A DNA stretch of 60,124 bases, counting the filler, from Hausera hauseri (lineage: Eukaryota), in assembly GCA_046269625.1 (NCBI GenBank). It is 11 parts of 11 records of this genome, joined end to end, with 100 filler letters (N's around TTAATTAATTAA, not from the genome) between each part and the next. Parts side by side here need not be neighbours in the genome. Positions count along the whole stretch, not along the records: positions 33,679 to 38,553 come from JBJURY010407145.1; 10 more parts are not named here. One strand, given 5' to 3'. The notes below the pieces were generated by a model. It was not told the DNA's origin. It was given only the letters and a program-made list of their open reading frames with translations, and did no database searches. Position numbers and translations under genes: made by a program. Below, piece by piece: positions 24,209 through 53,992 of the stretch. The stretch's first letter is position 1; every line of letters starts with the position of its first letter.

Positions 24209-27200
24209 TTATTCCAAATGCCAATATCCGTACGCCCAACTCTTATTTTGCCCCACCCACTCACGCTTATCATCATTGCATGATAAAGCGACTTTTGTAT
24301 TGTTCACCGTATACAGCTGGTGCTCAATCGATTGGGTGATCCTTTGTGTCACATCAGCTTTGATTGTCCTCCTTCTGCTGCTTCTTCATAGATACGGCGA
24401 TAATAACCGTGGTTTATTTCCGACTGAGACAAGTGAACTCCTTTGGCGCGAAATTTCGGTCCACCGTTTGTTAAAACCCTATAACATTTTGGCCGTAGAA
24501 ATAACCATTCCCGATACTGAGCCCGACCTTCACTTTCATTCTTGAAGCAGCCAATTTTGTTTACGATACGGCTGCTGTACAGCGGATGATCCGATGGATA
24601 GTTGAACGTGTCCAATAATCCATCTAACTGCATTCGCTGCAAGTTGCTGTTCGCTATTGACTTTTTTCAGCCGCAGGAAAAAACTGTCTGTGCCACCGAA
24701 AATTATACTAATGTAACAGCCGTCAAACATTTGCCGGTAACGTGCCAAATTGCGATACTGTAGCTCATACATTCGCAGCTTTCTCAGGTTCAATACCACT
24801 TGTCCGATTTAACTTGGCCGGTCCAGAACGACTTCTTCTCTGTTTAACAGCACCGCAACCAATCCATCGGCAATGTGCATTGACCGCCCAAACTGCGCCT
24901 TACTCGTGTACATGACCAACCGCATTTTGCTATTGCATAGACGTACACTAAGTCGCTTTTTCAGATTCTTCATTGTTTTTCCGTAGAGAGAATTGTTTTT
25001 CAGCTTGTAGTAGTCCTTTTCGAACTTTGTACAATCTGTGGCTAGTTTCTCCGAATTTCCATATATGTACGCCTTGAATATTGGAGCCCTACAAAATCGG
25101 ATTGCACGATGCAGCTGTATGACGCGTACATGGAGCTGCATGGAAAACTGTAGCAGACGCCAACGGATCACGTAATTCAGCTTCGGTTCAGGCGTCATGA
25201 GCAGTTTCTTTACTTTTGAGCCTGGCGGACATTGGTTAAATGGTGCGATCGGAAAATTGTCCAAAACGTCATGCAGCTCATTTGGTACCACGAGATCGAC
25301 TTCCATCAGGTGTCTGACTGAGCATTCCATGTCTGCTGGTGGTAGGTTGACCATTATGTCGTCCAGATCTTGTCTGTCTACAACACATTCGAATGAACCG
25401 TATGGCAAGGGTTGCGAAAGCGCCCAGCCGTACAGGTCATTAATATCAATACACAGCAGTGATGTGGTATCGGTAGCACGGACCTGATGCTTGTTGTCAT
25501 ATGTCATGCAGCCGTGAATACCAACATCAAACAGCCGGTACATTTCCAGGTCTTGCAGCAGCTCAATATCTCGATCCAGTGACATTAGAACTGACGCCCA
25601 ACTCATTGCAGGTATGGAATAAAAGTTAAGTGGCTCCAGCCTATCTTCAGCCAATGTTTTCGTTCGAAACACTTGGAACACATCGGTTAATAAGTATTTG
25701 TCGAGTTTAAGATACTGGAGCATGTAATCCAACATGTTTCTACAGCCAAGTTCTGTCAAAAACCTCTGTGAATTTCGGTAATCATCCTCTGAGATACCTC
25801 TCCATCGTCTCGGTAATTCCTCTGCTGTCCGCAATCGCTCATATTATGTTACAAAGTCATATGGAAATATGCTTTTGCTAAGTGCAAAATGTGCGGGGAA
25901 ATGCGTCAGTGCTATCGGAACATCTGGTAAGGAATTTGTCAGCTTTGCCAATGATTCATTGAGAAATTGCAATGAATCAAGGAAGGGTACCTGGAACCGG
26001 TTTATGCGAGCAGACAGTGACAGGTATTTCTCCATCGTAGTCGAAATTATGGATAATTCCCAGTGCGGAAATCCATTTAATGCCCATTTAAATATGGTGA
26101 CAGTCACAAGCCCTGAAGTTATGAAATACCACCGGTAAGAATGGCTACGCACGTCTTGTCAAATTGCATGAATTACATGCTGCTCCGAAATATCGACTAG
26201 TAAAATGATCGTGATCCGGTACGAGCCGTTCCAGTGCATCAAACGGTAATATTTTGTGGCACAAGTAATATTCATCTGTGACTGCAAACGTCAGACTTTC
26301 ATCTTCATCTGTCCACATCAGTGGTTTATTGCTATTTCTACTGTACCAGGGGGGCGATTTCAGTTTCCACTATGGTTTGCAACTTCTGCAAGAAATCGCG
26401 TACACAATTCCATCTGTAAAAAACATAATATTGAGGTTGACCTGCGGCTTTTATTGGGACAACCAACATACCGACGGCGATTGGAACATGTTTTTGGTCA
26501 TGTATGTTGTGCCGTGGTAAGATAGCTTCGATATCGGCATATACTACACATGCACGACTGTCTGTTTTTGATCAATCAGTGAACCTGAGTTTCTGTGTGA
26601 CGGGCATGATATACGTTGTTTTTCCTGACAAATTTTTTTGCACAGAGTGGCATGTTTCGCCAATGTTGTTTCCGACCTGAATCCTAAAAGACATGCAGAA
26701 CACCATTTACACTGTATCCGTTTTTGGAGGAAATAGTCATGCGCCATGTTCAGTAGTCTGTTCAAATTTGTCACTGCAACGAAATGGTACTTTTCTTTTT
26801 GTTCCAGTAGCAAAAAATTTACTGAGCGGCCATTTGGGTTCTGACTACGATAGATTATATCCACATGGGGTTTTTGTACATTTCTTTATCCTCCGGTATT
26901 TCTACGATTGTGTTGTACCGGAACACGTTGATTGCCAGTATCAGATTACGCCGTTCAAAAGCCGGAATGGATTTAAATTTCATCGGAATCCAGCTTCCAT
27001 CGAAATCCAATTCGGAAAAATATTTCTGATACTGTTTTGGACGAGATGCATTGTGTCTGTCCACTTCGTCATATTTCAATACCCCCAGAATACTGTAAAG
27101 AAAACAGTATTAATTGTTAGTATTTTTTACATTAACTACCGCCAGAGACTGCTTCAGGGCTGCAGGTGTCGGTACGAATGATCGTCCAGACAAATATATT

Positions 27201-27719
27201 ATGTCACTCGACTTTGTTATAATAAAGCCGAGAGTGACAATCTTTACAATTCGCCACCCTCTATCCTTCTGCGTGTAGTTGGCGATTTTCTCCTCGAGCA
27301 TTTTGCAAATCTCAGCGATAAAATCCTCGGAGTATGGTACAGAACAATGTGACAAGTACCATTGCTTCCTGTCGCCTTGCACGTTTTTGAATTCTGCAAG
27401 TGCATAATATTGCACTTTGCAGTGGTGGTGTTGGAATTTGTCCACTTCAGAATCCAACCGGTTTCATACAATGGATGGAACATGTCTCAACTGCGTTGTT
27501 GTTGTTTTCGCTGACATGTTTACTATTATATCCACGTACGACTTTTTCAGATTGTACATGACACTAATACATGGTTCCTGCCCCTTTTGTTCTTGTTCCT
27601 GCTGCTCCTTCTGCTGTTTCTGATTTCTGTTGTATTTCAAGTATTCGTCAAGGCTTGTTGATGCCTAACGTTTCCTACGTGTTAAGGGAATAATGTTGCT
27701 GCTGCTTTTTTGCGTCCAT
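24209..27719 (-). pseudogene. Protein-primed family B DNA polymerase polyprotein of a Polinton/adintovirus-like element (TP-like, vOTU-like, zinc finger, EndoVII, exonuclease, polymerase)
   Basis: VVNVKNTNN*YCFLYSIL..KYHFVAVTNLNRLL (vOTU Cys/His), DHDHFTSRYFGAACNSCNL (EndoVII), FLDSLQFLNESL..FPYDF, YLKLD, IDINDLYGWALSQPLP, KLKNNSLYGK, GGTDSF, FLRPKCY..RAKGV and DDKR. Several frameshifts. Confidence 0.95.
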
Positions 27720-28093: not shown

Positions 28094-28212
28094 TCTTCGT
28101 CTAGATTTTCTTCTCGTCGTCTTTTACATTCTTCCATCCATTTCGTCAGCCATTCCTTTCGATCATCGGCCTTATTTTTACCGAAAGCAAATATGATACT
28201 TTTTTCGTCTTT
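28094..28212 (-). pseudogene. TOP2: DNA topoisomerase II fragment, overlapping the end of the long ORF in another frame
   Basis: KDEKSIIFAFGKNKADDRKEWLTKWMEECKRRREENLDE matches the TOP2 motif DDAAISLAFSKKQIDDRKEWLTNFMEDRRQR. Confidence 0.85.
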
Positions 28213-31200
28213 TTTGTTCTGCTTTCATAAGATAAATCGGAAATGTCAATTGCAAATTCCCGATCACATGATGACCCAGAAGAGTTTATTCGATTATCGT
28301 TACTCGTACCATTAATTGAAAGTTTCATATCCTCGTCTTGCTTTTCAAATTCTTGATTACAATTAATATTCTTTTTCAAATTTTGTCTCTCTTTTACATC
28401 ACACATATCTGCCAAATGAAGCTCATGGCTTATTTCCGAAAGCTTATCAAGTACTTTTGGTATCAGAGATTGACCAAGAGCTTTACGCATTTCAAGGTCA
28501 AATAAATTTTCATCTCTCGTTAACTGGCTTTCAGAAGATATATCAGCATTGCCTACTTCATTTTCGTTGGGGAATAAACTTATTTTTCCTTCAACACTGC
28601 TTGTAAGCTCTAGAGACGTCGGAGTAATTATTTCATCTTTTGACTCTTTTTTTTCGTAATACAAATCCGATACGTTTCTATCAGTATCTGTGTCAAATGG
28701 CACATCAACTGATTTCGATTTATCTTCATCAATTCGTGATTCAGTCTGTTCATAGAAATCCTGTCCGAGGTTTCTATGTATTTGAGAAATAGTTACATCT
28801 TCTTTCATAACTCTTTCCGTATCATAAACTTTATTAGCCATCCGATATTGTTCAGAAGTTTCAAACATCTGAACATGATCTGAAACCCCAGAAATATTGG
28901 TTTCAAGCATACTTTCATGTTTTAGTACCGGGCTTTCCAAAGAAACCTCAGAAGTATCATTATCAGTTTCACTTTTCAAATACCCATCTTCAACGTTTTC
29001 TTTAAGTTCTGCTGAATACAAAAATCTATTATCATCTTTTGTTGCTTTTCTCTTTTTCAATAAATCAAACATATCTCTATCCATTTTATTTTTAGAAATG
29101 TGTGCTGTTTCATCGTCCAAATTGTCATAAAGTTGCGGGGATTTTGGAAAATAATTTAATTCAATTTCAGTATCTATTTCTTCGTTAGAAAGTAAACAAC
29201 GATTCAGGGTTTTAGATTCAAGACGACTTGTGTTCACTGTCTTTTCTAAATCTTTAATTGTGCAAGCTTTGCATTTAACAAGGTCGTCAACATGTTTGGG
29301 TATACTTTCAGTATTTTGAGCATTTAATTTTTCATGAATGTTGCATTCTGATTCGAATACATAACTCTGTTGAGTTTCATTTTCAGTTTCAATATTTATT
29401 CCTTTTCGGATCTTACAAGAATCGGCTAATTGACTAGTATTTGTACTACTATCAATTTCCAGACCGTCGATCTTCGTCTCGCATTTTTTTATTTTTTCGG
29501 GCATCGCACAACTTTCAGCAGCGCTATGTGTATCTATTCTATCCGATGCAATTTCCTCCACTGACATATCATCATTTGTACTTTTGGATTCGCTTTCAAA
29601 CGGACTTGTTTTCATATTATCATCCTTGCTGAATTTTGTGTCTTCACCAGAATCAATAAAATGTCTTTCTTCGTTCTTGAAATTTGCATATTGTTCATTT
29701 TCTAGTAAAGTGCTGTCAACAGTCGATATTTGGCCTTCAGATTGAATCTTTACCCTGCTCTCGTTTGTGTATTCATCAAATTGAGAAGATTTATCAACAT
29801 CATCTTCATTCATATATTTTAAATTATCCTCAATTAGAATTACGTTTTGTAATGATAAGCCATGATCCGTGTGTTTGATTTCATCATTAGAATCTACCTT
29901 TATTGATGAATCATCAATGCAAAATTCAACATGAATGCCACCATATTGAGATTTGATTTCTTCAGAAACATCAAAACCTTTATGTTTTCCCACATTAAAT
30001 CTATTCAAATTGTCTTCAACTTCATCCAAAATATTTAATCCCTTTACAGGATTTTCCATATTTCTGTCAATTGTCATTTTCTGTTTATTTTCCGCATCTG
30101 GGTCAGTTCGCCTTTCCGATGATGCACCAATAACATCTTTATCTTCAATGTAAAAATTATACACACCGGTTGGAAAAATTTCAGATGAATGACTGTGGAA
30201 TTCTCTTTTAATCAAACTTTCTGCTACGTTATTTTCTATTTCGTTATTTATGCTTCTTGACGATTTGTTCGCAGCTGAAAGTTCGTAGGATTTATTAAGT
30301 AGCTCACTTTCGTTATTGACACCATCTTTCAAGGCGCTGTAATCATCGGTACTGGAAAAATTGACGCAGACCTCTTTACCGTGAACAATTAAGAATTTAC
30401 AACTGTCTTTATCCTTATTATCACTGTGAAGTCCATCGGATGTTGCAATACTGTTCAGACTGAGTCTGTCTAAATCCGATTCTTTCAATATTTCCTGTTC
30501 AAATAATTTACTGAGATTTTTATTTCCGGCAGTATTTATCACAGGTAAAAATAATGCATTCCGAACTTCATTTTCGTTTCTGATGTCGGGTAGTTCTTTA
30601 ATTCCCGGTAAAGGTTCAGCTTCGTCGTCGTTTTTCTGTGGTAATTCTTTCGATTCGGAATGATCACTAACGGATAAATCCAATGACAACGATTTGCAAA
30701 AATAAATACTTATATTCGATTCATGATCTCGTGACAGATTTACATTGGATGGGGATTCTGGAGTAATGGCTCTCCCCATGATTTCATCTTTTATTTTTCT
30801 TGAATCATCGACTGGATTACTTCCTTTAACTGTCGTTACAAATTTAGATTCCTGATAATTTATTTCCTCCAATTTTTCCGACATTTTCAAAGGTTTTTCA
30901 TTAATAATAGGTTCATTTATTTCTACTTTATCTTCATCAAACGACAACGAAACTCCACATGAATCTGATGATTTCCCATTATCATTGTCACTTTTATTTT
31001 CTGTTAATGGAATATTCGATTTTTCATTAACAGCTTTGTTCAATTCTACTGTCGAATTCAAAGGGGTTTCGTCGGAACCATTTAAAGTTATAAATTCTTG
31101 TATCGCAACCTTTTCTGAATCTTTGTCTACCGTTAAGGACACACTGAACAAGTTTGTTGGTTTTACATTTTCGGCATGGTTTTCCTTATCCAACTCTAAC

Positions 31201-32889
31201 TGTACATCAACCTGTGATGTTAAAGTGACGTTTTCGGCTCCAACATCAATATTACAAACATTCAGTTTTTCCGATTTTTTCAAATCAATATCAGCCGCCT
31301 GATTCAATACGTTCTGAACAATACTTAGATTTTGTTGATCGATTGATTCATCAGTTGAACCAGACTGTAAAACTTGTAAACTACATGAATTTTTAGATTC
31401 AAACTCGTAATCATCTGGTTTAATATATGATGGACCCATTGTAGAAAACCTGGGTATTGTATCTATTTCGTTCACAAGATTTTCTACAACATTTGGCCTT
31501 TGTAATTGTAAGTTCGATGATACAACAAATGTTCCTTTATTACCTTCAAATTCAACTTCAGTATTTAAAAAGTCCATTTTTAACTCTTTCAAATTTTGCT
31601 CATATGGCGGACTTTCAAACTGTTCTGGAGTTTTATCGGCCATTTTCAGGAAATTTGTTGACTGAACTTGGTCAATTTCGTTCGGAATGTTTCTTCGACG
31701 ATTCTTAATGTTTTCAATAAATGTTTTACAGAAGTCCTGCAACTCTGATTTGTCATTGAAAGTACTGTCAATAATAATATTCCACATCTCGGCATTGTTC
31801 CAGCTTTGATTAATCACCAATTTTTGTTTGTCGAGCGGTACAAAATCGGAAAATTTCGGACAAAATAATTCCGTAAGACAATGCAATAAAATTTTCTTCT
31901 CGATAAAATCTCTTTTGGAATCAAAATTTTCGATTATATAATTCCAAACTGTCAAAAAATTCCCATGACATAAATCTATTAAAAATGACGGAAATTTGAT
32001 GATAGGGACAAGTTTTAACGTAATCTACAATACGTGAAAATATTTCCATTTCATTCATTTTCAACGAAATAAGAGACTTGTACAAATTCTTCAATTTGGT
32101 TAACACGAAACACGATTGAGGACAAACTCCATGATTAAAATTATTAAAAATTGATTGATAAATTTGTTGGAAAGCATCCAATTCCAAGTTGTTCAGAAAA
32201 TATGCGAGAACACAACTGCTATCCTTAGTGCAGTCACTAATTAGGGCAAATAATATAAGATGGACTTTAACATCAATATTGAAATCATTATTTCCAATAT
32301 AATAGGTCAACAATACAACACCTATTTTATGACAATTTGTCTCGAAAAACGATGGCGACATTGACAAATTTAACAAAACTGAACTGAGAACCACAGATAA
32401 ACTCTCCGTATACATCGGATTTGATGACACAATTTTACAGAAAATGAAGCACCATTTTTCAACAGTAGGCGATTCAACATTGAACAATTCACTGAACAAT
32501 TCGTTGCTTCTCTGATTTTCAAAACATAATTCTCTAATTATTTCTTTCAAAACAACTCCAAATTCATTTCCCTGATTGTCGATTGGAATAAACAATGACG
32601 GAATTGATATGTCCAATACATGTCGGTTGAATATGATCATTTCAAATTCACCTTTAATTACAATGAGTATGATTCCCACGTTTCTACTATACAAGTTCAG
32701 TATTTCCTTCTCATTTCTCTTTCCATCTGAATATCGAGAGGAATTCTTTCTCACCAGATTCCCTTCATTATACTTTGAACGGGATTCTCTTGCAAGAGTT
32801 CCACCTGAGATGCCAAATGTTATTCTCAGTGTTTCATCATCATTTCTTTTTAATACTTTACTTTCCTTTCGGTCCATTTTCTTTAACAC
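28146..32889 (-). CDS. Very large unknown protein: helical/hydrophobic N-terminal part (322-aa ORF) plus a 1269-aa acidic, Ser/Asn/Glu/Lys-rich part, probably one gene split by a frameshift or small intron
   Basis: The two long open frames overlap at 31921-31955. No recognisable domain. Confidence 0.7.
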
Positions 32890-33678
32890 AGATAAAATGC
32901 AACTTTAACGCGGATAAAAGACAACTTTCTATTCAAATTTTGAGAATATCGATTCAACACGATTTCTAATTATGTATTTGGTCTTTTCATTCACAATTTC
33001 CTTATTGAAAACGTTTTAAACAAATAACAAAAACTCATATAAAGTTCACAAAATAAAGGAAACTTTACACAATTTACATGAGAAAAGTCATCTCGCTTTA
33101 TAATTCCTAGCTACGATTTATTTTTCGTCGATTTGATAGTCACAAGCCATGCATGTTCTGATAACGTTTGTTCCATAAGTCTATAGAATTTGTTATTATT
33201 AGAATTATCGTTGTTTGGCCGAAATCGTGATCTACACCGCGATACACCATGGTCAGCCGTCTCAGCCCTCACCTTTGATTTTAGTTAATTATTTTTGGTC
33301 TATACAATCACCTTAAAATTCAGTGAAACACCTGAATTTATGGATTCTCGAATATTTGACTTGTAAACCGATAATCGAACTTCTGACGTCATAATCGGAC
33401 TCCCCATACATGTTTTCCTATCTACCTACGTTTAAAGATTTATCGATTCTTGCACACCTCACCTTGAAAATCAAGTTAATTAAAGCGCGCACACATTTGT
33501 ACATTTTTCAATGTTAATTTACTCTTTAAGGATTTATCGAACATGGTCCATTTTATGCAAGGTTTTCACAGATGCGTANNNNNNNNNNNNNNNNNNNNNN
33601 NNNNNNNNNNNNNNNNNNNNNNTTAATTAATTAANNNNNNNNNNNNNNNNNNNNNNNNNNNNNNNNNNNNNNNNNNNN

Positions 33679-34587
33679 CTATAAAAAGCCATATCTTTGT
33701 TGTCCCTTTCCCTTTAATAAACAGTATCAAATATATTATCAAACTATGGTTAATGGTTATATGTGGTCAACATTGTCAAATGGACCAGAGATAATGAAAA
33801 GGTCCCTAATAGTACCAGCAACAATGGTGTCAATGAAAACAACGTCATTTACTTCAAGATACAAACAAAAAATAATAACTAGTTTATCCGTTGAGACTCA
33901 GTCAAAAATTGCTAAAGAATTAGATATAATCATACACCCAACAGTATATTCGCTGATTGTTACCATATCAGATGTAAAAAATACGAATATAAAATTCGAG
34001 TGTTTCCTTCACAACAGGATGATAAGTGAAGGAGTGATTACATGAGAAAAACCAACATCGGCCTGTATGTTCTTAAAGGCTGATACAAATTATAAAGTCA
34101 TTATAACAGAATTGGATAAAGATGAACAAAATCTACAAATAATCTATCGTATGAGAAAAACATCGAAACAGGCCATTATGACTACTACGAAAGCTATAAA
34201 AATAACAACTACACAAAATTATCAAAGTAATTCAAATATGTATCTGTGTATAACGATCTTATTATATATACTTTTAGTATTAGTAGTCTATTGTTACCCT
34301 TAATAATTTATTACTCCAAAATAAGGTGGCGACAACGCAGAACAAAAGAAATATTGAGTCAATTAAATATGTTAAGAAAGGATTCCCAAGAGTCGTTAAC
34401 CAATATAAGTGCGCCTTTTGTTAAAAGTCCAAGGTATGTCAAAAGATTTGCCGACCAAAAACGACAACCCCGACCGCTTAAGGACATAACCGTTTGTCTG
34501 TATACAAAAATTCGAAATCATCTCGCAAAATTCGTAGCGACCTACTTAAGAAATAGACAATCAAAATACGATAATTTTCCTTTTTAA
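33679..34587 (+). pseudogene. Frameshifted putative type I membrane protein (ectodomain, Thr-rich stalk, TM helix, basic tail)
   Basis: Three consecutive plus-strand ORF pieces: MTTTKAIKITTTQ stalk, hydrophobic YLCITILLYILLVLVV / LLLPLIIYY, then SKIRWRQRR. Confidence 0.5.
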
Positions 34588-34924
34588 AGCCTCTTGGCTA
34601 ATATTAATACCTTTTCTTTTAGTCCAAGAAGGTAGAGAAAAGGCCGAAAGATCCTATTCCTTCTACAACCATATCTTATCTAATCTTTGGACCAATTCCT
34701 ATAAAGATTATTATTATTATTGAAAGGCCTCTTATATTCCCAATAATTTAAAAGGGTACTCAGTCAATCAGAGAAGTAGTCTTATAATCAAATTACGACT
34801 CAATTCAATAAATCTTTCAGATCTAATCGATACTTGTAGGTAAACACATAAAATATATATTTCAGTAGCAAAAGGAACCATACAGTTGAAAAGTAAATCA
34901 TACTCTAAAGGAATCATCGACACA

Positions 34925-36628
34925 ATGGAAATCCTAAACCGAATAATAATCCGTTTAGACCCACGATTATATACTAACGCTACTCTAACCCTGCGAACAT
35001 GTGAAGAACCATTCCCAATAATCTACGTAGAAGTAATTAAGAAGGATTTAGTGCCACGTTGAGATTACCAGATTCTGAAATACACTACTCCAAGACCTAA
35101 AGAAATTGATGTGGAAAAAGGAATGACATTCGCAAGAAGACCCACAAAATCAAAAACTGATATAATAATTATGGTTGTGAATCCCATATATCTGTTTACT
35201 CCAATTAGAAACAAAGAAATGATAACAATAGAAATTACCTTAATGGAAGGTAAGATAATCGTGGATGGAATTCTGTCCCAGAGAAAAAATAGACAATAAT
35301 AACAGCCATATAACAAAGCTAAAAGAGAAAGACATCATTGGACAAAAGGATTCCTACCATAAAGAACTCTATATAAGAGAAGAAATTGTTGGAAAAGTAG
35401 TCGTTGGCATCGACCTTTATCATATTTTTGCAAATATCTTCAGATATGATTATAACAATCTGCTTGGAATTAGAGAATTTTTGTATCATAAAAAAATTAA
35501 TCCCCAACGAGAATACTCAGCTAAGCAAATTTTTACCAAATACAATGGTAATATTTACCCTCAAAGGGAAAGAGATAAGGCTCCAACAGTATTAAACATT
35601 TGTAATTCCATCTCAGAATATACAAACGAATGTTTCGAAACCCCAATAGATATACAAGAGTCCTCTGAATCCCAACTTATAACTCCTCATCAACCACAAA
35701 TTCGACAAATGTCTACGTGTTTAGAACCCTCTCAATTAACATCAACTCCCATATCCGGAGATTGTTATATTGATCTGAAACCATTAATAGTTGCCAGTTT
35801 CCCAGAATATATTTCCGTGGATCTGACGACGAAAAGGAAGAGGAGACTTTCAAAGACAGAAACTATCACTCTAAAAAACGTATTAAAAAGAAAGGACAAT
35901 GGTTTCATATTAAATCTGTCGATTGTCAAGATTCTAAAGGAATCATAGCATCATCTAAGGATGGAGATGTGCAATCAAAGCCATCAAAGTCAGACTAATA
36001 TGACACTAAACCGACAGATTTTGTATTAATTTGTCAGATAAATTCAAAGAAAATCAAGAATTGATTGATGGCACTCAGTTTAGACAAGAGCTTTCTATGT
36101 TGTTGTCACCAACAATTAGCCATCAACAATTTGCTAATCTATTGGACTTGTTGTTGATCTATACTGCTGGTACAAGCCCATATCAGAATGTCGTACGATA
36201 CATAATTTATCGGTATGCCGACAGAGTAAGAATGGTTTGAGAAGATCCTGAAGTGATTGTTACTCTACAACATTATAACCAAGATTTTTATGTCCTAAGG
36301 ATTGGAGTTACGCCTTTATGGACGCACTCTGATGGAATATGAAACTATATATGAAGTAGGTATGTGGGTAAACAGATACAATCCCGTATGTATTGCTTAT
36401 AGACAGCCTGAACAAAAAATAATCGACGAAATTATAACTGATGTAAGACGGAAGGCAACACAAGAAGCTGAACATCAACATCAGGCTCAAGAAGTAGAAG
36501 CTGTAATGAATATTTCTATATCAGAACAAATGTAAACGGATAAGAGAAATCGTTGTAGACCAAAAGGAACGACGAAACTTTACCAATTAAAAGGCAGAAA
36601 GGCCAGAAATGATGAGTGTGTCCGAAGA
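34925..36628 (+). pseudogene. Decayed N-terminal part of a virus-like polyprotein, function unknown
   Basis: A chain of plus-strand ORF pieces from the ATG at 34925, separated by single stops or frameshifts and running into the Bcl-2-like/env segment. Confidence 0.5.
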
Positions 36629-36661
36629 TTGCTAACAACAGAAGTTAAATACGACGTAGAT

Positions 36662-37063
36662 AATGCATCGTTAACAACATTACTACAAACTTTGTTAGCA
36701 AGAATGCACAATGCATTCATTGAGTTTAATGCTAATCTACAAATACCAGATTCACCAATGCAAATTAAAAGGAATGAAATCGCAAAGATTAGTGAACAAT
36801 TTGCAGATATTTCTACGGATGAGAGGATAAATGGAATCCAGGAAAGAAACATACTGTGTAGAATAATGGGAACCGGCATATCCCGAAATAAAATTGTAAC
36901 AACAACATCTTATTTCTTGTATAAAATAATAGTGATGAATGGAATCAATCCAAGTCAAGAAGAGATAGAGAGGAATATGGAAATTGCCACTATAACGTTA
37001 AAAGCTAATGTCGACGAATGGGTAAAATGTAGAGGTGGATGGATTACTAGTTTAATTCAGACG
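36662..37063 (+). pseudogene. Bcl-2-like domain within the polyprotein
   Basis: BH3-like IKRNEIAKISEQF, BH1-like IMGTGISRNKIVTTTSYFL and BH2-like NVDEWVKCRGGWITSL (W-x4-GGW). BH1-to-BH2 spacing is 43 aa versus 42 in Bcl-xL. Confidence 0.6.
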
Positions 37064-37159
37064 ACAATAGGCAAATATGCAGCAGTCAAGAAACGACAGA
37101 CAGAATATTTCCCACTTCAACAATCAGCGAGACAACGAATTATACAGCCTAAGCTTGAT

Positions 37160-38553
37160 TTATCATGGCTAACTAAAGTTATACCCATAGTCCTTCTGTT
37201 TAGTCTGATGCCAAAAGCATTTTCGATTACTGCTTATGATTGCAGTCAAGCTAAGTAAGGTCCAATATATTCTTTACTGGACTTAGAAAAATGTCCATTT
37301 GCTAATCCAACGTCGTTAACTACCATACCAGAAAAGGAATATTATGTTTACCATTAATCAGAATTTGTAAAGACAAAGGTAAAGGAATGTTTTGTCAGAA
37401 GAAATCAATTTCATTTTATTTGTGGATACTGGTACAGGAACTCAGCTATAACAGAAACAACTACTCCGTTTGAGCCACTTCCAATAAGTAAACGGATGTG
37501 CATGGAAGCATTTGTTACAAAGCAGATTAACATTGGAAACATTCGGCTAAGGGCTTACAAAGGGAAAATTATTAATAAAAGAATTTTTGTAGCTGGTTCA
37601 ATTGCTAAAACAGGATACTGTAAAGGAGAATCATATAACATAAACGGTGAAATATTGGATAATGTGATAGCTACTGAAGACTACCAAGTCGAGTTAAGGG
37701 AATACGATGCACTCTTCGAAATAACATATAGAAAAATGATGACATTTCCCGAATGTGACTATTATAATAAAGAATGTGATACGGGTGAATCGATCATGTC
37801 ATATGAAGTTGACAGAGATCGATGTCATCTGGCATTATTAAAGGTTGGAAAGTTTAACAAGACCAAAGACGGATATATAAAGAAGAGATATCCAAAAGTC
37901 GAATAGGTCGAGTATTAGACGCAATTGACACACTATCTGTAGTATACTCAGCAGATCATACCAAAGTGATGCGATTTAAATTAGAAGGCGATACTAAGAG
38001 ATGTGATAAAACGGTATATCGAACAAATTACAAAGGGATATTCCTGTCCACAACAAGAATTGAAGAAGCTAAAAGACAAATTGATAAATCGGAAGTAAAA
38101 CCCCATTTGTATTTTGATAATAAAATAGATTTTATCTATCATTTCCAACAGGAAAATATTTATACGATGTATTGAGAAATAATCTTAAATGATTGTAAAT
38201 TGAATCGCGAAATAATTAGAAACATAATATATCTGTTGGCTATAACAGTCGGGATAATAAAAGATCAAGCTGAATCAGTGATACCAAAGGGAAATTTGCA
38301 CGAACAATGGGTGAAACTTTTGTAACGTTCGAATGCGCTAGAGTAGCTGTCAAACTCAGACCAACTGCTAAATGTACGATGGAGTTACCTGTCTGGTACA
38401 AAGAAAAGCCGCGTATCCTCCAACTGATTACGCGGATACTATTGGACCCGGCAGAAAAACCATACGTGCATCAAAATTTCACATATACCATGTCACCCGC
38501 ATTTTGATTAAGCGATAACTTATGGATAAGTCTGCCAAAAAGGGAACAAATTA
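37160..38553 (+). pseudogene. Chuvirus-like (class III, gB-like) envelope glycoprotein with internal signal peptide, copy 1
   Basis: LSWLTKVIPIVLLFSLMPKAFS|ITAYDCSQAK*GPIYSLLDLEKCP..KECFVRR..FICG..C..AGSI..GYCKG..CDY..ECD..YFDNKIDF..GETFVTFECARVAVKLR..CTMELPV..ITRIL. This is the typical YDC/SLLD..C N-terminus and Cys pattern. Confidence 0.85.
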
Positions 38554-45054: not shown

Positions 45055-48000
45055 TCTGGGTCCAGCCTATGTGCCCTACGCGCCGGCAGCGGACGCCCTG
45101 CCGTGCCCAACCAAATGGGCCAGAGGGCGACGGTCGATGCCGGCACCACATCACCCCCCGTGACAAAGTTAAAACTATGAAAAGCGAAAGGACAGAGAGA
45201 AAAAATCGCAAAACGAAAAGTGTGTTAGATGAGTTTAATGTGAATAAGACGTTGAATACCTTGGACTGATTTTTCCCTGCTATACTTGCTGAATGTGACT
45301 CTGCGTGTTGCGTGTTTTGCGATGTGTTTGTTTGCAGTGATTGAGGTTGGGGAAAAATTGTTAGATTTTGATGTAAGTGTTGTGTCGTGCTAAGATGAAT
45401 CGGAATAAAGAGAAGGAGAAGACGAAGAATAAAGGGGGTTTTTAAAGACGGATGGTTAAAGGCACTGAAAAGAGTGTTAGAAGACGAAGGAGTGATGACA
45501 GGTGTAGTGGTGGATAAAGAAAGAGAGGAGAAAGTTGGAGTATAGATTGGAATTGTGTTGAATGAAAAAGTGGAAGGGAAAGATGGTACAGAGGTAGTGG
45601 TAGGAATAAAAGTAGAAGGTGTATAAAATGATGGAGCAGGACTAGGTTCAGAAGAGGAAGGTGGAAATGATGTAGCAATAGATGTAGTGATAGTAGGGAG
45701 TGGATGAGTAAGAAAAGAGGTTGAAGTGTCGGTTGGTAAGGTGTCGTCGACAAAGAAAGCGGGCTTTAAGTTGGTAATGTGTACTGTAAAATCTTTGCCG
45801 TCTTTAGAGATAATGGCGTTGTGTGAGTGCAGCTGTATCAGTTTATAGGGCCCCAGGTACCGCTGCTGAAAACCTCAAGGTGCTTGATTCTTTAGCCATA
45901 CGAATTTTGCCGAATACAAATTTTCGGGTAAGTATGTTTTGTCTTTGTGAAGTATCCTGCAGAACGAATCTTTGCTGACCTTAACAAAGTGATTTTGCGC
46001 TGCCCGTATTGTCTCATCCACAGGAGTGTCGTCTAGGATGGTTAGTTCGAATAATGATCGGACAGGAGCTCCGAATAAGGCTTTAGTAGGTGAGCATCCT
46101 GTGAAAGTGGACGGAGTGTTCCGCTAGCCAAGCAGAACGAACGGAAGAAGATTTGTCCAACCAATGTTGGACTCTGCGAGGATTCGTAGTGACGTTTTAA
46201 GGTTCGGTGGAAACGTTCTAGAAGGCCATTCGATTGGGGTGATAAGGCGTAGTATGTATGTTATGGATCCCCAATCGGTTAACAAGGGATTTGAACAGGT
46301 TTGATTCAAACTGTAGATCCTGGTCCGTGATGATGAAGCGAGGTAATCCAAATCTGCTAATCCATGTGCGAATGAAAACGTCAGCTATGATGTCGGTGTT
46401 TGTGATCCGCAGAGGGATGGATTCTGGCCATCGCGAGGAACGGTCCATCATGGTGAGGATGAATTGATGACCGTTGTCTGGACGAAGAGCGCCAACGATG
46501 TCGATATGCACGGATTCGAAACGCAATGTGCAGGGAAAGTGGAATAGTGGTGGCTTTAAATGCTTAGCTGTTTTGTATTTTTGACAAGCCACACACTCCT
46601 TAACCTATGCCTGCACATCAGAGCGCATTGGCGGCCATATTACTTGTCGATGGAGTAAACGAAAAGTGGCTTAATACCAGGATGGTGTAGTGAATGAACG
46701 CTATGAAATGCTTGCTTTTGTAATGATGGTGCTAGATTTACTAGGGAATGGCCTGGTTTGGAGGTGTCTAAAGCCACGACGTCAACGATTGTGCAAGACT
46801 TGAAAGAATTAAGCATATCATGGGGTGGCGGTTCTGTTTAAGTTAATCTTGCATAAAGATCGGTGAAAAATTAATCGAACTAACCGATCTAGATAAAAGA
46901 TTAGCAACCAAATTGGTAACCCGTTAATATGTTTAATTTCGAAGTTAAATGTCGATAAGTATGATATTTGTCGTTCTTGGCGTGTGGAAGGGTGTTTCAT
47001 AGCCATGATGTTAAGTAATGGCTTGTGATCAGTTTGTAGAGTAAAATGACTAGCTACTAGTAGCTGTAAGAAATGCTTTAAAGCGAAACGATGGCCAATA
47101 GTTCTCGATCGAACGTGGAATATCTGGTTTCAGGTGCTGTTAGCTTGCGAGAGAAAACTTCTGATGGTTGATTTTTTCCCTTGTAGATATGGTGCAGTAC
47201 AGCACCTACAGCAGTGGTTGACGCGTCTGTAGTAAGGATGAGTTCTGCATCAGGCTTGGGGAAAGCTAGAATATCTACGGATTTGATGCCTTCGCGTAGC
47301 TTGTCAAATTTGTCAACTAATTCAGGTGTCCACTGGATTGACTGATGTTTCTTGCCGCCGCTTAGGTGTGCTAATGGTGCGGTCAATTCGGAGCAATATA
47401 GTACATATTTATGCACAAAGTGTAAGGTACCAAGGAAACTGCGCATTTCCATGGTTGTACGTGGCAATTGGATGTTTTTAAGAGCTTCGACTCGGTCTGA
47501 TTGGGGAGAATGACCGTCTGGTGTAATAATGTGGCCTAAAAAGTTAATGCGCTTTTTGAAGAAATGGCATTTGTCGAAATTGACTTGGAGATTATGGTGG
47601 TTATGAAGTTGGAATATTGCACGAATGTGTTCTTCGTGTTGTTTGGCCAAAGATGAAACGACTATAATATCATCGATATAAGGGTGTGCAAACGGGAAAT
47701 CGGAAAGAATTGAATCGATGTGCCGCTGAAAAGTTTGTGCGGCATTTCGCAAATTGAATGGCATAAACAGGTATTCGTAGAGGCCAAAAGGAGTAGTTAC
47801 TGCAGTTTTTTTTATGTCTTCGGGTGCTACCGGTATTTGATGGTATGCTTTAGCTAAATCAATGGTTAAATAGATGGTGGTTAAATTAAGACGATGCAAG
47901 ATAACCTTGATGAGTGGTAAAGGATACGCGTTTATGATAGTCAAGTTGTTTAGCTGTCGGTAGTCACCGCATGGTCTAAAGGTACCGTCCTTTTTTGTAC

Positions 48001-48405
48001 AACATGTAACGGTGATGACCAAGGAGATTTGGAACGGAATACTATGCCGAAACGTTCTAGCTCAAGAAATTCGGCTTCTACGGCCTGTCCACGACGAGGT
48101 AGCAGAGGCTGTACTTTTTGGCGCATTGGACGTTGGTGCTGTGTGACTATGTGGTGTAAAGGGCTGTTTGCGGAAGTAAAAGTACGGTCTTTTTTAAGTA
48201 CGCGAGGACATGAGGTGTTGACGAATTGCTGTATAGTTGTAGGTAACTGTGCGAGATTTGGTGGAACTGGTGAAACGGCTTGCGTAGTAGCAGATGCAAT
48301 GTGTGAGTTGTTTGGTGATGTGCAGTCAAGTGGTATTTGGTGTAAGATGGTTGAATTGAAAATGGTGTTGGCTGAGGTATTTTCGTCAAATGAGTTAGCA
48401 TTGGT
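45055..48405 (-). mobile_element. Ty3/gypsy pol (RT-RNase H-integrase) with PPT and GC-rich 3' LTR stub starting at 45150; same family as 7490-12500
   Basis: RPCGDYRQLN..IDLAKAYHQIP..PYIDDII, TDAST..RYSTFDRELL and VHIDIVG..TTPYHP. FLGHIITPDGHSPQ is shared with the other copy. GGGGGGTGA|TGTGGTGCCG marks the LTR start. Confidence 0.95.
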
Positions 48406-49175
48406 GACTATCAGATCAAGTTGAAAGAATATGAGGTATTATTCGACTCACAGACAAAATTGATGACGACTATGAGTGAATGCGAGTATGATAGTGGAGA
48501 ATGTGATACTGGATAATCGAAAATGACATGGGAAACCACTGCAAGTAAATGTCAGTTGACACTGTTACGAGAAGGAAAGTTTAATAAAACAGTAGGAGAA
48601 ACGGCAGAAAAAGAAACAGCTACATATAAAGAAGGGACAAAGGAAGATAAGATGACGGAGGTGGCTACAATTGTATATTCGAAAAACCCAGAAGAGATTA
48701 TGCGATTCAAAATCACGGGAGTAGCAAATAAGTGTAACGAAGAGATCCAAAACTAACTATAAAGGTATTTTCTTATCAAGAAAAGAAATACCCGGTTCAA
48801 AAACCAAAATAGATAAGAAAGACATAAAGTTGACGCAATACTTTGATAATAAGATCGATTTTCTAGTCAATTATGTAAGGAAGATAATTCGAGGGTTATA
48901 TAGAGAAATAAAAATGCATGAATGTAAGCTGAATTATGAAATAATGCGCAATAAAATGGCATTAGTAATAACGAATCCGGGCATGGTAGCGCCCGTAATG
49001 CCATTCGGCGACGGAATTATTAGCAGAGTGATGGGCGAGGTATTGATAACAACAGAATGTAAGAAGGTAGAAGTATCAATTAGGCTAACAGAAGAATGTA
49101 CAATGGAATTACTTGTGGTTTACCATACAGAACCAAGATATGTGATTCCAGTAACCAGAATATTATTATATATTA
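48406..49175 (+). pseudogene. Chuvirus-like envelope glycoprotein, copy 2 (internal fragment)
   Basis: DYQIKLKEYEVLF..ECEYDSGECDTG*S..CQLTLLREGKFNKT..MRFK..TNYKGIFLS..YFDNKIDF..MGEVLITTECKKVEV..CTMEL..VTRILL is collinear with copy 1. Confidence 0.88.
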
Positions 49176-50047
49176 ACGTTGTGAAGGGGAAACTCGATTG
49201 ATGATATTTAAATTGTATATTAATTTAATTGTATATTAATTGTATATTAATTTAATTGTATATTAATTTAAAAAGGGNNNNNNNNNNNNNNNNNNNNNNN
49301 NNNNNNNNNNNNNNNNNNNNNTTAATTAATTAANNNNNNNNNNNNNNNNNNNNNNNNNNNNNNNNNNNNNNNNNNNNCCTAGATATACCATAATTAGTAC
49401 AAAATATATCAGAGGGGCCAGTTAAAAGTATGTTATACTGAAAGAAATCCCAAAATCTACTATTTGCATACTTATTAAATGCAGTCATAAATCAGTTTTA
49501 AGCAGTCGAGTTCTCTGGGCTCAAGCTCGTCTTAGATGTTGTTTGGGGCTTTCCTAGGTCACAATGGTGATATGCAGCAGTAGAAACAAAAAAATACAAT
49601 TTGGTAAAGACTAATTTGCTGACACCACAAAGTGAAAAAAATGAAGAACTACCCGTGCATATGGGCACATTTTAGTGTCTACGAAACAAGTGGTTCACAC
49701 CTTTTAGAGACGCTGACCCCAAACAGTAATACGGTGTGAATGTACAATAAAATGCCAAGACATGCTATGCAATTTTCATTAATGCATATGTTGTGAATCG
49801 GAACTGAAGTAGATATAACATGCATATATGTGCCCTCTGATAGTTTGTATTTAATTATGGAAATAACGCAGCTTAAATAAAGCACAAGGGGAAGTTAAGA
49901 CAATGGGAAAACCACAGGAAAGAAAGAAAGAGCAGAAGTGTCATGAGCCAGGATCGAACCCACGACTTCTTAGGGGGAGCTAAATTATAGACTAAATTAA
50001 GTAAATATTTTATGATCTTCTTCTTCTTCTTCTCGTTCGTTACATGT

Positions 50048-53000
50048 CTAAATCTGCAGACCAGCCTCTTGGATAAATTTGGCGGTGTGGTGTAAGTCAC
50101 CGGCTGAACCATATAATTTGCTCTCCAATTCTGCACCATGGGGCCAATATTTTTCTCGCAGGGCTCTGAGGTTGGTACAGTTCTGAAGAACGTGTTCTAC
50201 AGTCTGGGCCTCTTGTGCACATTCACACAGAGCAGTATTACCGATTTTAAATTTGGAGAACAGGTGGCCTCTTAAGCGGTTGTGACCCGTTCTTAGCCGG
50301 AAAATGGTAACCTGCTCTTGTCGGTCCAGTCTGTGGTAGTCATCATTGGGTGGCCTAGGGGGCTTCCTTTTGGTGTTAATAATAACTTTCCTCTGCCTGT
50401 AGGAAATGGGTGCGTCTGGCTGCTCTTGTTGGGTGCCTTCTTTGGCCAGCGTGTCAGCTCTTTCATTGCCAGGTATGCCACAGTGTGATGGTATCCATTG
50501 CATAACTATCCTATGTTGTTTGCAGATCCTAGTCAATGAGTCATTTAACTGTGGCAACTTTCCACTCTCTAGTGATTCAAGTACTGATCTGGCATCTGTG
50601 AGAAAGACTACAGGGTACGCATAATTTAAATTCAGGCTCTGTGCAGCAGCAGCAATGGCCTTCACCTCTGCATCAAAATTGCTGCAAATTTTCCCAGTGG
50701 GTATGCTGATGGTTTCTTTGGTGTGGTCTGGGTATTCAATCAGCACTCCAGCACCTCCGTTTTGAATGGCATTTTCTGCTGATCCATCTGTGTACACACG
50801 GATCCAAGCATCGCCAGGAAATTCTTCTTCGAGGAGACAAAGTGTTACTGCTCTTTTTTGAAGGTCATTCTGGTGGTTACAAATTCCTTTTATTGTGGTT
50901 CTTATGGTTATTTTGAGACCTGATCTTTCAGTCCATGGCTGAAGCTCTGGCACTGTGGATAGTGGCATGGATACTTCTGGAAGCTCCATTATCTGACGGC
51001 GTAGATATTTTGTCTTATGTACAAAGCTACTCCTCTTGATGCGACTTAATGATAAGTTTTTAAATTTATCAGCCATTGGGTGGTCAGGAATAGATTTGAA
51101 TTTTTCTCCATGAATAATAGCTTTTGTGTCTCTGCGCTCCTGCAGTGGCTGTATGTTTGTAGATTTTTCCATCTGTGTAATAGGAGTTGATTTCAGAGCA
51201 CCAGTTATTATTCGGAGTGCTTGATTTTGGACTTTGTCTAAACTATGCAATGTGGTGTTTGACGCAGAGCCCCATGCTGTAGAACCATATTCCAGGTGAG
51301 GACGAACTCCTTGCTGATACAGCTTCTTAAGTATTTCTTCAGTGGCACCCCACGTTGTTCCGCTTAACTTCCTCATTATGGCTAATTTTCTCCTTGCTTT
51401 TGTTTCTGCCTTACTGATTTGTGGTTTCCATGTGAGCCTGCTATCAAAGGTAACTCCCAGGTATGTTGGCTGATCATCATCTTCTAAAGCTTTTCCATCC
51501 ATATAAATTTTTCCTGGCTTCTGCTGGGATAGTGTGAATGTTGTAGTTGATGTCTTTTCAGTATTGATGCTGACACACCATTTACTGGCCCATGTAGTCA
51601 GTGCATCCACAGCTTTCTGCATACGTTTTGTGGCAGTGGTAGCAAATTCATCTGTGCACCACATGACTAGGTCATCAGCATACAATGCAGTTTTCACTCC
51701 ATAGGGTATCTCTGAAATAAGGTCATTAATGAAAATGAGGAAGAGGGTAGGAGACAGTACACCTCCTTGTGGAACTCCTTGCTGTAGTAAGACTTTTCTG
51801 CTCTTGAGACCATCTAATTGTACTCTGGCTCTTCTATTGTGCAAGTAGGCTTTAATCCACTTGAGCATGCTACCACTGATATTACACTTCATCATTTTCA
51901 AAAGCAGACCATCTTTCCAGACCTTGTCAAAAGCCTTTCGAAGGTCAACCCATGTGGCCATTACCAGCTTTCTATCCTGAAAGGCATCTTCAATGTCTTG
52001 AGATAGGTAGGTAGCTTGATCCTCTGTGCAGTAGCACTGTCTAAATCCTGCTTGCTGTGGTGCTAGGTGATTTCCACTTTCTAAGTGCCATTTCAGTCTA
52101 CAGTTGATAATCCGTTCCATTGTTTTACAAAGACAGCTAGTAAGGCTGATGGGGCGATAGCTAGAGGCCAGTGTGCTGTCCTTTCCATGTTTGTGTAGGG
52201 GCACCATGATTGCTTCTCTCCAGCTCTGGGGCACTACTCCTGTTGCCCAACTTATGTTGAAGATGTTAAGCAACTTAGCTCTTGCCCCAGATCCTAGATT
52301 TTTAATCATTTCATTAGAGATTCCGTCAGGGCCTGGACTTGTCTTTAGTTTCAATTTACTCTGTGCCATTTCCAGTTCTCTGAGTGTCAGTGGTAAAACC
52401 ATTATCTCTGATACCTGTTTATCAGTAGTAGTTTGTTTCTCTTGATTTAACTCACGTTTCCTTTTCTGAGGTACTTCTGTGTGACTGTCTTCTGCAAAAA
52501 TTCTTGCGAAATGGTTTGCTGCTTGTTTGCCAGTAAGTGTTTTGCCATTTTCCTGAAGTGTAATCTTTGTGGTTCTGGAGCTGCCTTCGTCACTTAACTG
52601 GTTGACCAATTTCCAAAGCTTTCTACTGTCTTTGTCCATGTTAAGCTTCTCGGTCTTCTCCTTCCAGCTCTTGCGCTTTGCTTGCAGTTTTGCTCTTTGA
52701 AACTTGGCTTTAGCATGTTGGTGGCTCTTGTGGTTTTCTTGATTTGGGTTGTCTTCCGTCTGCCTCCTGGTAGTTTCAACCTCTTCCTGTAGTTTTGCAA
52801 GATCATCACTCCAGTAAGGCCTGTAGTTCTTGTAAGCGCCTCTTGGTATTGTTTCTTTTGCTGTCTGGAGAATACAGGTGGTGAATTCCTTCACAATGCT
52901 GTTAATATCTTTGCCTTCTGTGACAATCTGTCCTGCGCGTACACTGGTGAGGTGGTTGAACATATTCCAGTTTGCCTTTTTATAATTCCACCTGGGGAGA

Positions 53001-53878
53001 GAACTACCTGTACCTAGATGCTCATTATCCACTGTGAGAAGAACAGGCCTGTGATCACTGCCTCCGAGTTGATTCTCCACTGTTCGAATGATGTTCCATG
53101 ACAGGCTGGGTGTATATAATGCCAAATCTGGAGTAGACGTTGTATGCCACACTTTTGAGTAGAATGTTGGGGGGTCTGTTGGTCTGTTTATTAGGAGCAG
53201 TCCGTTGTCATCTTGCCAGTTTTCCAACTCCTCTCCTCTTCGGTCTATATGGTCATATCCCCAGCTTTGAGAATGGCTGTTGAAGTCGCCACACACTAGG
53301 ATCCTCTCAGCTTGGGGTATTGTGTCGAGTGCAAGTTGGCGGTCAGGAGGGCAGTAATAGTTGACTAGTTGGAAGTCAGATTTCTCCTTCTTGATTTGGA
53401 GTACTTGGTATTCTGCTCCTTCCATGAATACTTTGACTTGACATGCATTGATGTTGTTTCTCACAAGGGTGAGGATTCCTCCTTTACGTCTGTCAACCCT
53501 GTCTGATCTGAAGGTCTGGTATCCTCTCACCTTGAAGGTCTTGTCTTTAGAGAGGTGTGTTTCTTGTACACAACAAATGCTGATTTGGTCCTCAAAAAGT
53601 CGATTTTCCAAATCCAGCTTTTTGTTCTGAATACCCTCAGCATTCCAGTGCATTATTTTCAAGGGTTGCACTTTCGATGCTGGCTGTGGTTTCTGATTTA
53701 ATTTTGATGTTTGGCCAGTCACTTTACTTCCTGGCCTCCTGGCTCCTCGAGGCACTGAGGAAGGATCTCCAGTAGCTATGGGTGGGCCCTTCTGAGGCAT
53801 AGGGCCCGGCACTGCACCTGCCTGAAGTATCACCACAGGGCGAGCACCATGATTTTCATCTGCAGAAAAAGACATCAT
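50048..53878 (-). CDS. 1276-aa APE endonuclease - reverse transcriptase - RNase H - Cys/His knuckle protein
   Basis: WNAEG, VQET, GDFNSH and SDHRP (APE); SPGPDG, YRPISL, GVPQGGVLSP and YADD (RT); YTDGS..AE..TDARS..WIPSHCGIPGNERAD (RNase H); RLRTGH..CEC..EHVLQNC. Confidence 0.97.
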   Translation of the reverse strand: MMSFSADENHGARPVVILQAGAVPGPMPQKGPPIATGDPSSVPRGARRPGSKVTGQTSKLNQKPQPASKVQPLKIMHWNAEGIQNKKLDLENRLFEDQISICCVQETHLSKDKTFKVRGYQTFRSDRVDRRKGGILTLVRNNINACQVKVFMEGAEYQVLQIKKEKSDFQLVNYYCPPDRQLALDTIPQAERILVCGDFNSHSQSWGYDHIDRRGEELENWQDDNGLLLINRPTDPPTFYSKVWHTTSTPDLALYTPSLSWNIIRTVENQLGGSDHRPVLLTVDNEHLGTGSSLPRWNYKKANWNMFNHLTSVRAGQIVTEGKDINSIVKEFTTCILQTAKETIPRGAYKNYRPYWSDDLAKLQEEVETTRRQTEDNPNQENHKSHQHAKAKFQRAKLQAKRKSWKEKTEKLNMDKDSRKLWKLVNQLSDEGSSRTTKITLQENGKTLTGKQAANHFARIFAEDSHTEVPQKRKRELNQEKQTTTDKQVSEIMVLPLTLRELEMAQSKLKLKTSPGPDGISNEMIKNLGSGARAKLLNIFNISWATGVVPQSWREAIMVPLHKHGKDSTLASSYRPISLTSCLCKTMERIINCRLKWHLESGNHLAPQQAGFRQCYCTEDQATYLSQDIEDAFQDRKLVMATWVDLRKAFDKVWKDGLLLKMMKCNISGSMLKWIKAYLHNRRARVQLDGLKSRKVLLQQGVPQGGVLSPTLFLIFINDLISEIPYGVKTALYADDLVMWCTDEFATTATKRMQKAVDALTTWASKWCVSINTEKTSTTTFTLSQQKPGKIYMDGKALEDDDQPTYLGVTFDSRLTWKPQISKAETKARRKLAIMRKLSGTTWGATEEILKKLYQQGVRPHLEYGSTAWGSASNTTLHSLDKVQNQALRIITGALKSTPITQMEKSTNIQPLQERRDTKAIIHGEKFKSIPDHPMADKFKNLSLSRIKRSSFVHKTKYLRRQIMELPEVSMPLSTVPELQPWTERSGLKITIRTTIKGICNHQNDLQKRAVTLCLLEEEFPGDAWIRVYTDGSAENAIQNGGAGVLIEYPDHTKETISIPTGKICSNFDAEVKAIAAAAQSLNLNYAYPVVFLTDARSVLESLESGKLPQLNDSLTRICKQHRIVMQWIPSHCGIPGNERADTLAKEGTQQEQPDAPISYRQRKVIINTKRKPPRPPNDDYHRLDRQEQVTIFRLRTGHNRLRGHLFSKFKIGNTALCECAQEAQTVEHVLQNCTNLRALREKYWPHGAELESKLYGSAGDLHHTAKFIQEAGLQI

Positions 53879-53992
53879 GTACGGGGGATGCGTGACATTC
53901 TGGTTGCTGGTGCACCTCTTGGTCGAATGCCGCCGACTTCAGCACCTGTCCTTGCTTGAGCATGACAGTGATCTTGCTCGATGGGTAGGCCC

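Follow-up and report, generated by a model that had tools for sequence, protein, structure and literature searches.

A likely Bcl-2-fold domain ahead of the Env signal peptide in a much-repeated Gag-Env family, most likely a compact relative of planarian Burro elements

Our analysis of a 60,124-nucleotide stretch of the Hausera hauseri assembly (hereafter the window) points to a decayed member of a highly repeated Gag-Env retroelement family, in which a domain likely to have the Bcl-2 fold stands before the signal peptide of the envelope protein (Env). The reading that we favor, and consider likely, is that of a compact Burro/GYPSM1 relative whose membrane-anchored, cytosolic domain might dampen host cell death. 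The element is a new example of a published layout, not a new kind.

Layout of the window copy

The window consists of 11 contig pieces of ~4-9 kb each, joined by N spacers, and most of the pieces carry eukaryotic mobile elements by Pfam (RT, RNase H, protease and DNA polymerase B). The piece of interest and its parts are as follows, P0001 being the homologous protein described below.

33679..38553, no strand assigned: contig piece carrying the feature, with N-spacer joints on either side; env is interrupted by the end of the piece
36052..36303, + strand: helical region corresponding to P0001 396-479, 71% identity, with a stop at 36238-36240; homology to P0001 begins here
36283..36364, + strand: ubiquitin-like remnant (P0001 473-522), from tblastn segments; the PF00240 match on P0001 is below cut-off
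36671..37063, + strand: Bcl-2-like helical domain, residues 46-176 of frame 36536-37258; weak PF00452 match, six predicted helices, 79% identity to P0001
36764-36802, + strand: BH3-like segment
36875..36898, + strand: BH1-like segment, non-canonical in the window copy and P0001 alike
37013..37042, + strand: BH2-like segment, W-x4-GGW, residues identical from W to W in P0001
37064..37156, + strand: 31-residue linker of variable sequence; of 29 residues aligned with P0001, 8 are identical
37157..37225, + strand: predicted internal Env signal peptide (hydrophobic 37160-37225), from hydropathy and small residues at -3/-1
37226-37243, + strand: glycoprotein start; a stop follows at 37256-37258
37226..38553, + strand: class III (gB-type, chuvirus-like) Env, PF24664, truncated by the contig end

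All three BH-like motifs, the linker, the hydrophobic segment and the glycoprotein start lie in frame 36536-37258, which stays open for 240 codons. A sequence-only reading had placed these motifs, the hydrophobic segment and the glycoprotein start in one frame, and each was found in the position given, within that open frame. The same reading took 36629 as the start of the ORF, which was mistaken: the codon there is a TTG within a frame open since 36536, not a protein start, and the homolog extends further upstream, into Gag. The segment 37160-37225 holds the frame's top 15-residue hydropathy (2.0), and the downstream pieces match PF24664 (Monjiviricetes_fusion in Pfam; E 3.7e-11 and 8.1e-9, or 2e-16 with stops read as X), which bears out the earlier claim that a chuvirus-like glycoprotein follows it. 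Stops at 37256, 37355, 37904, 38173 and 38505 interrupt the window env, as do frame changes; further upstream, the counterparts of P0001 residues 480-501 are missing, with a frame shift at the same place (36283-36364). The window copy itself is unable to make the product.

Upstream of the P0001-like part, on the + strand of 33679-36050, lie decayed frames at 33680-34303 (with a hydrophobic tail at its end), 34844-35299 and 35259-35948, none of which matches P0001 Gag or, at a significant score, any Pfam family. This region is repeated in sequencing run X1 at lower summed depth, and its stretch 35635-35797 is almost unshared. It may belong to another element, or may supply accessory domains in a longer subfamily. 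Since the upstream region of the window copy differs from that of P0001, the family may be modular.

A homologous Gag-Env polyprotein

Three word searches and a full HMMER search found a sole true relative, P0001, which is 69% identical and has 1130 aa in one uninterrupted frame. The yields were one of 741 candidates among longer proteins, two of 5751 with the query included, and none of 58 near the query's length; the HMMER search covered 1.84 billion representatives, and its other match, P0002, was rejected as a repeat-rich chance match. No related locus was found in viral contigs or in metagenome contigs, the Atlas gave no usable match, and no RNA dataset is listed as containing this sequence.

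The order of parts in P0001 is Gag capsid, CCHC knuckle, helical region, weak ubiquitin-like match, weak Bcl-2 match, linker, signal peptide and Env. Residues 25-178 match an Arc-like Gag capsid (E 0.0068), 197-212 a single zf-CCHC knuckle by Pfam, and 473-522 the ubiquitin-like family PF00240 (E 0.031, under cut-off). Env, matched by PF24664 over 793-980 (E 6.3e-19), starts near residue 808. By tblastn, the window matches P0001 from residue 396 onward at 66-75% identity, its parts running in P0001 order from the helical region to Env, and the Gag capsid and CCHC of P0001 have no counterpart on the window contig. NCBIfam returned nothing for P0001 or for frame 36536-37258. No protease, RT, integrase or LTR was detected on the contig or in P0001, both of which end inside Env; the P0001 contig is only 4786 bases long.

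This comparison settles one concern of the sequence-only reading, that the Bcl-2-like segment might be an unrelated adjacent insertion. The domain sits inside the Gag-Env polyprotein of P0001 and is therefore not an adjacent insertion; it is conserved within the family, in the same order relative to Env in both sequences. The proposal that the domain and a chuvirus-like Env are translated together, joined by an internal signal peptide, likewise stands, given one frame in both sequences and the order in P0001. The signal-peptide reading is further supported by a stand-alone Env, P0003, in which an N-terminal signal peptide precedes the same start motif as in the window Env.

We also observed that P0001 382-457 (window 36052-36240) is a conserved helical region, with 71% identity and pLDDT ~50, among the better-predicted parts of the model. 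It has no convincing family match and could be a further captured domain.

Evidence for Bcl-2 ancestry

The domain probably has Bcl-2 ancestry. PF00452 was the best Pfam match in three of three window cuts (E 0.086, 0.019 and 0.037), and P0001 651-748 covers model positions 6-100 of 100 (E 0.055). These matches score 13.8-15.9 bits, below the curated cut-off of 31.4. Chance-like Pfam matches at E up to 0.05 also occurred in 6 of 34 other frames used as a control, so the E-values alone are no proof of Bcl-2.

The predicted structure is consistent with this assignment. The domain of ~130 residues is modeled with six helices, of which the central one is hydrophobic, in the expected pattern, but model quality (pLDDT 41 for the domain and 34 for P0001) is too poor to decide the fold. 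In Foldseek, the Bcl-2 family accounts for 7 of the top 10 rows and 18 of 48 among the matches listed, spanning A1/BFL-1, BAX, CED-9 and a gammaherpesvirus protein, with a best E of 0.54 and TM up to 0.30. No Bcl-2 protein was present among the 50 matches listed in a VIA structure comparison, none was named among the 50 listed from BFVD, and none was found in the PDB by sequence; the BFVD and whole-P0001 Foldseek matches were not significant. A fold prediction had been proposed as a check on the earlier reading, and its outcome is mixed, as Bcl-2 proteins top Foldseek but at sub-significant scores and low model confidence.

Bcl-2 proteins carry the consensus L-x3-GD in BH3, NWGR in BH1 and W-x4-GGW in BH2. 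Both the window copy and P0001 retain the BH2 motif, whereas their BH1-like segment is without the Trp and Gly of NWGR and their BH3-like segment is off consensus, without Gly-Asp. The claim of a Bcl-2-like domain thus holds in part: the leading Pfam and Foldseek family and the kept BH2 speak for it, while all scores are sub-threshold and BH1 and BH3 are non-canonical. Compared with PF00452, cellular A1/BFL-1, BAX and CED-9, and the viral Bcl-2 proteins of large DNA viruses, the domain is alike in length, in its six predicted helices, in the BH2-like motif and in having a hydrophobic tail. It differs in its score, its BH1 and BH3, and its position inside a polyprotein, where the tail is the Env signal peptide and lies ~30 residues further out.

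Could a helical domain unrelated to Bcl-2 resemble it by chance? The sub-threshold scores, the control frames and the low confidence of the models would all fit such a case. Nevertheless, PF00452 leads Pfam for both sequences over nearly its full model length, the Bcl-2 family leads Foldseek, and a BCL2-like domain has been published independently at the same position in Burro (PMC6431247). We therefore regard chance likeness as very unlikely.

Repetition and constraint

The family is much repeated, with many divergent copies. In X1, the one sequencing run found to contain this DNA and possibly its very source, 8905 contigs align to piece 33679-38553, mostly on 35961-38553, and 7364 of them are <95% alike; summed contig depth was not used to derive copy number. 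At 37256, 97 of these contigs differ in letter from the window copy, and the stop there is therefore private to it. Among the 40 rows listed of 1038, nearly all X1 depth differs from the window copy at 25 sites of the frame, 22 of which are codon position 1 or 2, which points to neutral decay of the window copy.

The family itself appears to be under selection. Within 36940-37065, synonymous changes make up 11 of the 17 differences listed, whereas they are 72 of the 369 that could occur (p 6e-5, in a test that ignores transition bias and relatedness and covers only contigs at least 80% alike). The sequence-only reading had made conservation of W-x4-GGW among copies a point on which it could fail, and the motif is indeed conserved: it is identical from W to W in P0001, its two listed differences in X1 are both synonymous, and no non-synonymous variant reaches at least 10%. 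Relative to P0001, the domain is far better kept (79% identical) than the linker that follows it (8 of 29 residues).

Other elements in the window

Another PF24664 Env fragment, more distantly related (48394-49201, + strand, ~40-50% to P0001), adjoins a - strand Ty3/gypsy pol (45875-48438); one of these elements is probably inserted within the other. A broken, protein-primed-type DNA polymerase B (PF03175), Maverick/Polinton-like, occupies 24349-27463 on the - strand. We rejected a Maverick reading of the Bcl-2-Env feature, as this polymerase (24809-25843) sits on a different contig piece, and a link to the RT genes of the window for the same reason. Two long frames of 1292 and 327 codons at 28146-32904 (- strand) are acidic, of low complexity and without a Pfam match, and are likely host gene exons. 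At 50048-53938, a non-LTR retrotransposon frame looks intact over its 1296 codons and encodes endonuclease, RT and RNase H.

Relationship to Burro/GYPSM1 and errantiviruses

The sequence-only reading knew of no retroelement polyprotein with a Bcl-2 fold, and here it was wrong. The planarian Burro/GYPSM1 elements, giant Ty3/gypsy LTR retrotransposons of dugesiids, encode Gag...Ubi/SUMO-BCL2-Env-Pol in frame (Arkhipova and Yushenova 2019, PMC6431247, which cites Jurka 2007 and Grohme 2018 as earlier sources). In that description, Gag carries CCHC knuckles, a Ubi2/SUMO-like motif precedes BCL-2, and an Env matching mononegavirus fusion proteins lies between BCL2 and the protease. With BCL2 placed directly before a mononegavirus-like Env in published elements, the earlier ground for novelty is gone.

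Compared by published description, the element is most likely a compact relative of Burro/GYPSM1. Both have one polyprotein, a Gag with CCHC, a Ubi/SUMO-like and a BCL2-like domain (each weak here) and then Env, and both occur in very many copies; the BCL2-like domain is followed directly by an in-frame, mononegavirus-like Env in the window copy and in P0001. Because three matches, weak or strong, fall in the published sequence, we count the shared order in favor of this explanation. There are also differences: Burro elements exceed 30 kb, with an ORF1 of 4873-5140 aa and PR-dUTPase-RT-RH-IN after Env (PMC6431247), whereas P0001 has ~800 aa from Gag to Env, ~260 residues from knuckle to Ubl, and one CCHC knuckle instead of two or three. 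The element is thus seemingly compact; shorter Burro members may appear in Figure 2A of PMC6431247 or the extended data of Grohme 2018. The Burro accessories MATH, BIR and ankyrin had no Pfam match in P0001 or in the upstream window frames. Pol, LTRs and full length lie beyond the contigs, and we accordingly call the element Burro-like without assigning it to Burro.

Gag-Env-Pol errantiviruses with gB-type Envs are described from flatworms (Platyhelminthes), Nematoda and Bryozoa in the main text of Chary and Hayashi 2026 (PMC13524379), where 'bcl' and 'burro' have zero occurrences. P0001 likewise has a gB-type Env after Gag. Short Env motifs match five rows of the 1.1-million-character cross-phylum Env table in supplementary file 3 of that paper, all of them Schmidtea errantiviruses, although an important caveat is that this search was biased, two of the four motifs having been chosen after the first matching row was known. 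By eye, P0001 Env aligns, cysteines included, with the entries Smed_errantivirus_1/2/4/5/6. A mention of Bcl2-like in a zebra mussel paper was set aside because it concerns a host gene, not an element.

The same layout could instead have arisen without Burro kinship, in a Gag-Env element that is non-autonomous or was assembled independently, or in a BEL/Pao-type or chuvirus insertion. Pol was not detected on the contig or in P0001, the stretch from knuckle to Ubl is short in P0001, which has a single CCHC, and Gag-Env-Pol elements are described in PMC13524379 as not monophyletic. However, the Ubl-Bcl-2-Env order is shared with Burro, Env resembles Schmidtea elements by eye, the Arc-like capsid is consistent with Ty3/gypsy, and P0001, on its short contig, ends inside Env. 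We consider such an origin quite unlikely, and retain kinship with Burro.

Proposed mechanism

For the Burro-like reading we propose the following route. Env would enter the ER, coupled to the ribosome, at the internal signal peptide, and signal peptidase would cut ahead of the Env start, delivering Env to the ER lumen. The signal peptide would stay attached to a cytosolic Gag-Ubl-Bcl-2 precursor and anchor its C-terminus, giving the Bcl-2-like domain a tail-anchored topology, as in Bcl-2 proteins. The sequence-only reading had signal peptidase release the domain by itself. A predicted internal signal peptide does join the domain to Env, but cleavage alone would give no free-standing Bcl-2: with the domain internal to the Gag polyprotein, it would leave a membrane-bound precursor of ~800 residues. 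Ubiquitin-type cleavage of this precursor was rejected, as no Gly-Gly follows the ubiquitin-like match of P0001; trimming would be done by the element's own pol protease, expected after Env. The domain would then bind host pro-death proteins and keep fusogen- and particle-making cells alive. This proposed suppression of host cell death is the least certain step, and we place its chances a little short of even.

Several poxvirus Bcl-2-fold proteins inhibit innate signaling. A domain of the same Bcl-2 ancestry that has lost BH3 binding might do likewise, or might act at the membrane as a scaffold on which Gag assembles. The departures from BH1 and BH3 consensus in both sequences fit this possibility, as does the domain's fixed place between Gag and the Env anchor, whereas the kept W-x4-GGW does not. 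In addition, a different captured domain of Burro1, an IAP region, reportedly shields planarian stem cells against caspase-mediated death (Lee et al. 2026, as cited in PMC13465017), which suggests selection on death control in such elements. We see the scaffold or signaling role as possible but somewhat less probable than suppression of cell death.

A bolder form of the Burro-like reading is a compact, still-selected errantivirus lineage outside triclad planarians, in which the Env signal peptide serves as tail anchor for a functional Bcl-2 mimic whose BH1 groove has been rewired. We hold it to be unlikely.

Significance

The layout itself being published (PMC6431247), the remaining point of interest is a seemingly compact Burro relative with a predicted signal-peptide-anchored Bcl-2 domain. 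Retroelements with death regulators of their own are rare. No experimental test of the BCL2-like domain was found in the literature searched, which took in neither Grohme 2018 nor Lee 2026. P0001 carries the domain intact in a short natural form, which would make such a test easy. If the host lies outside planarians, the Ubl-Bcl-2-Env module would have a wider range. If the compact, non-triclad lineage is real, it would offer the smallest system so far for studying a retroelement-encoded Bcl-2, and would suggest that the module predates the giant planarian elements and reaches beyond them.
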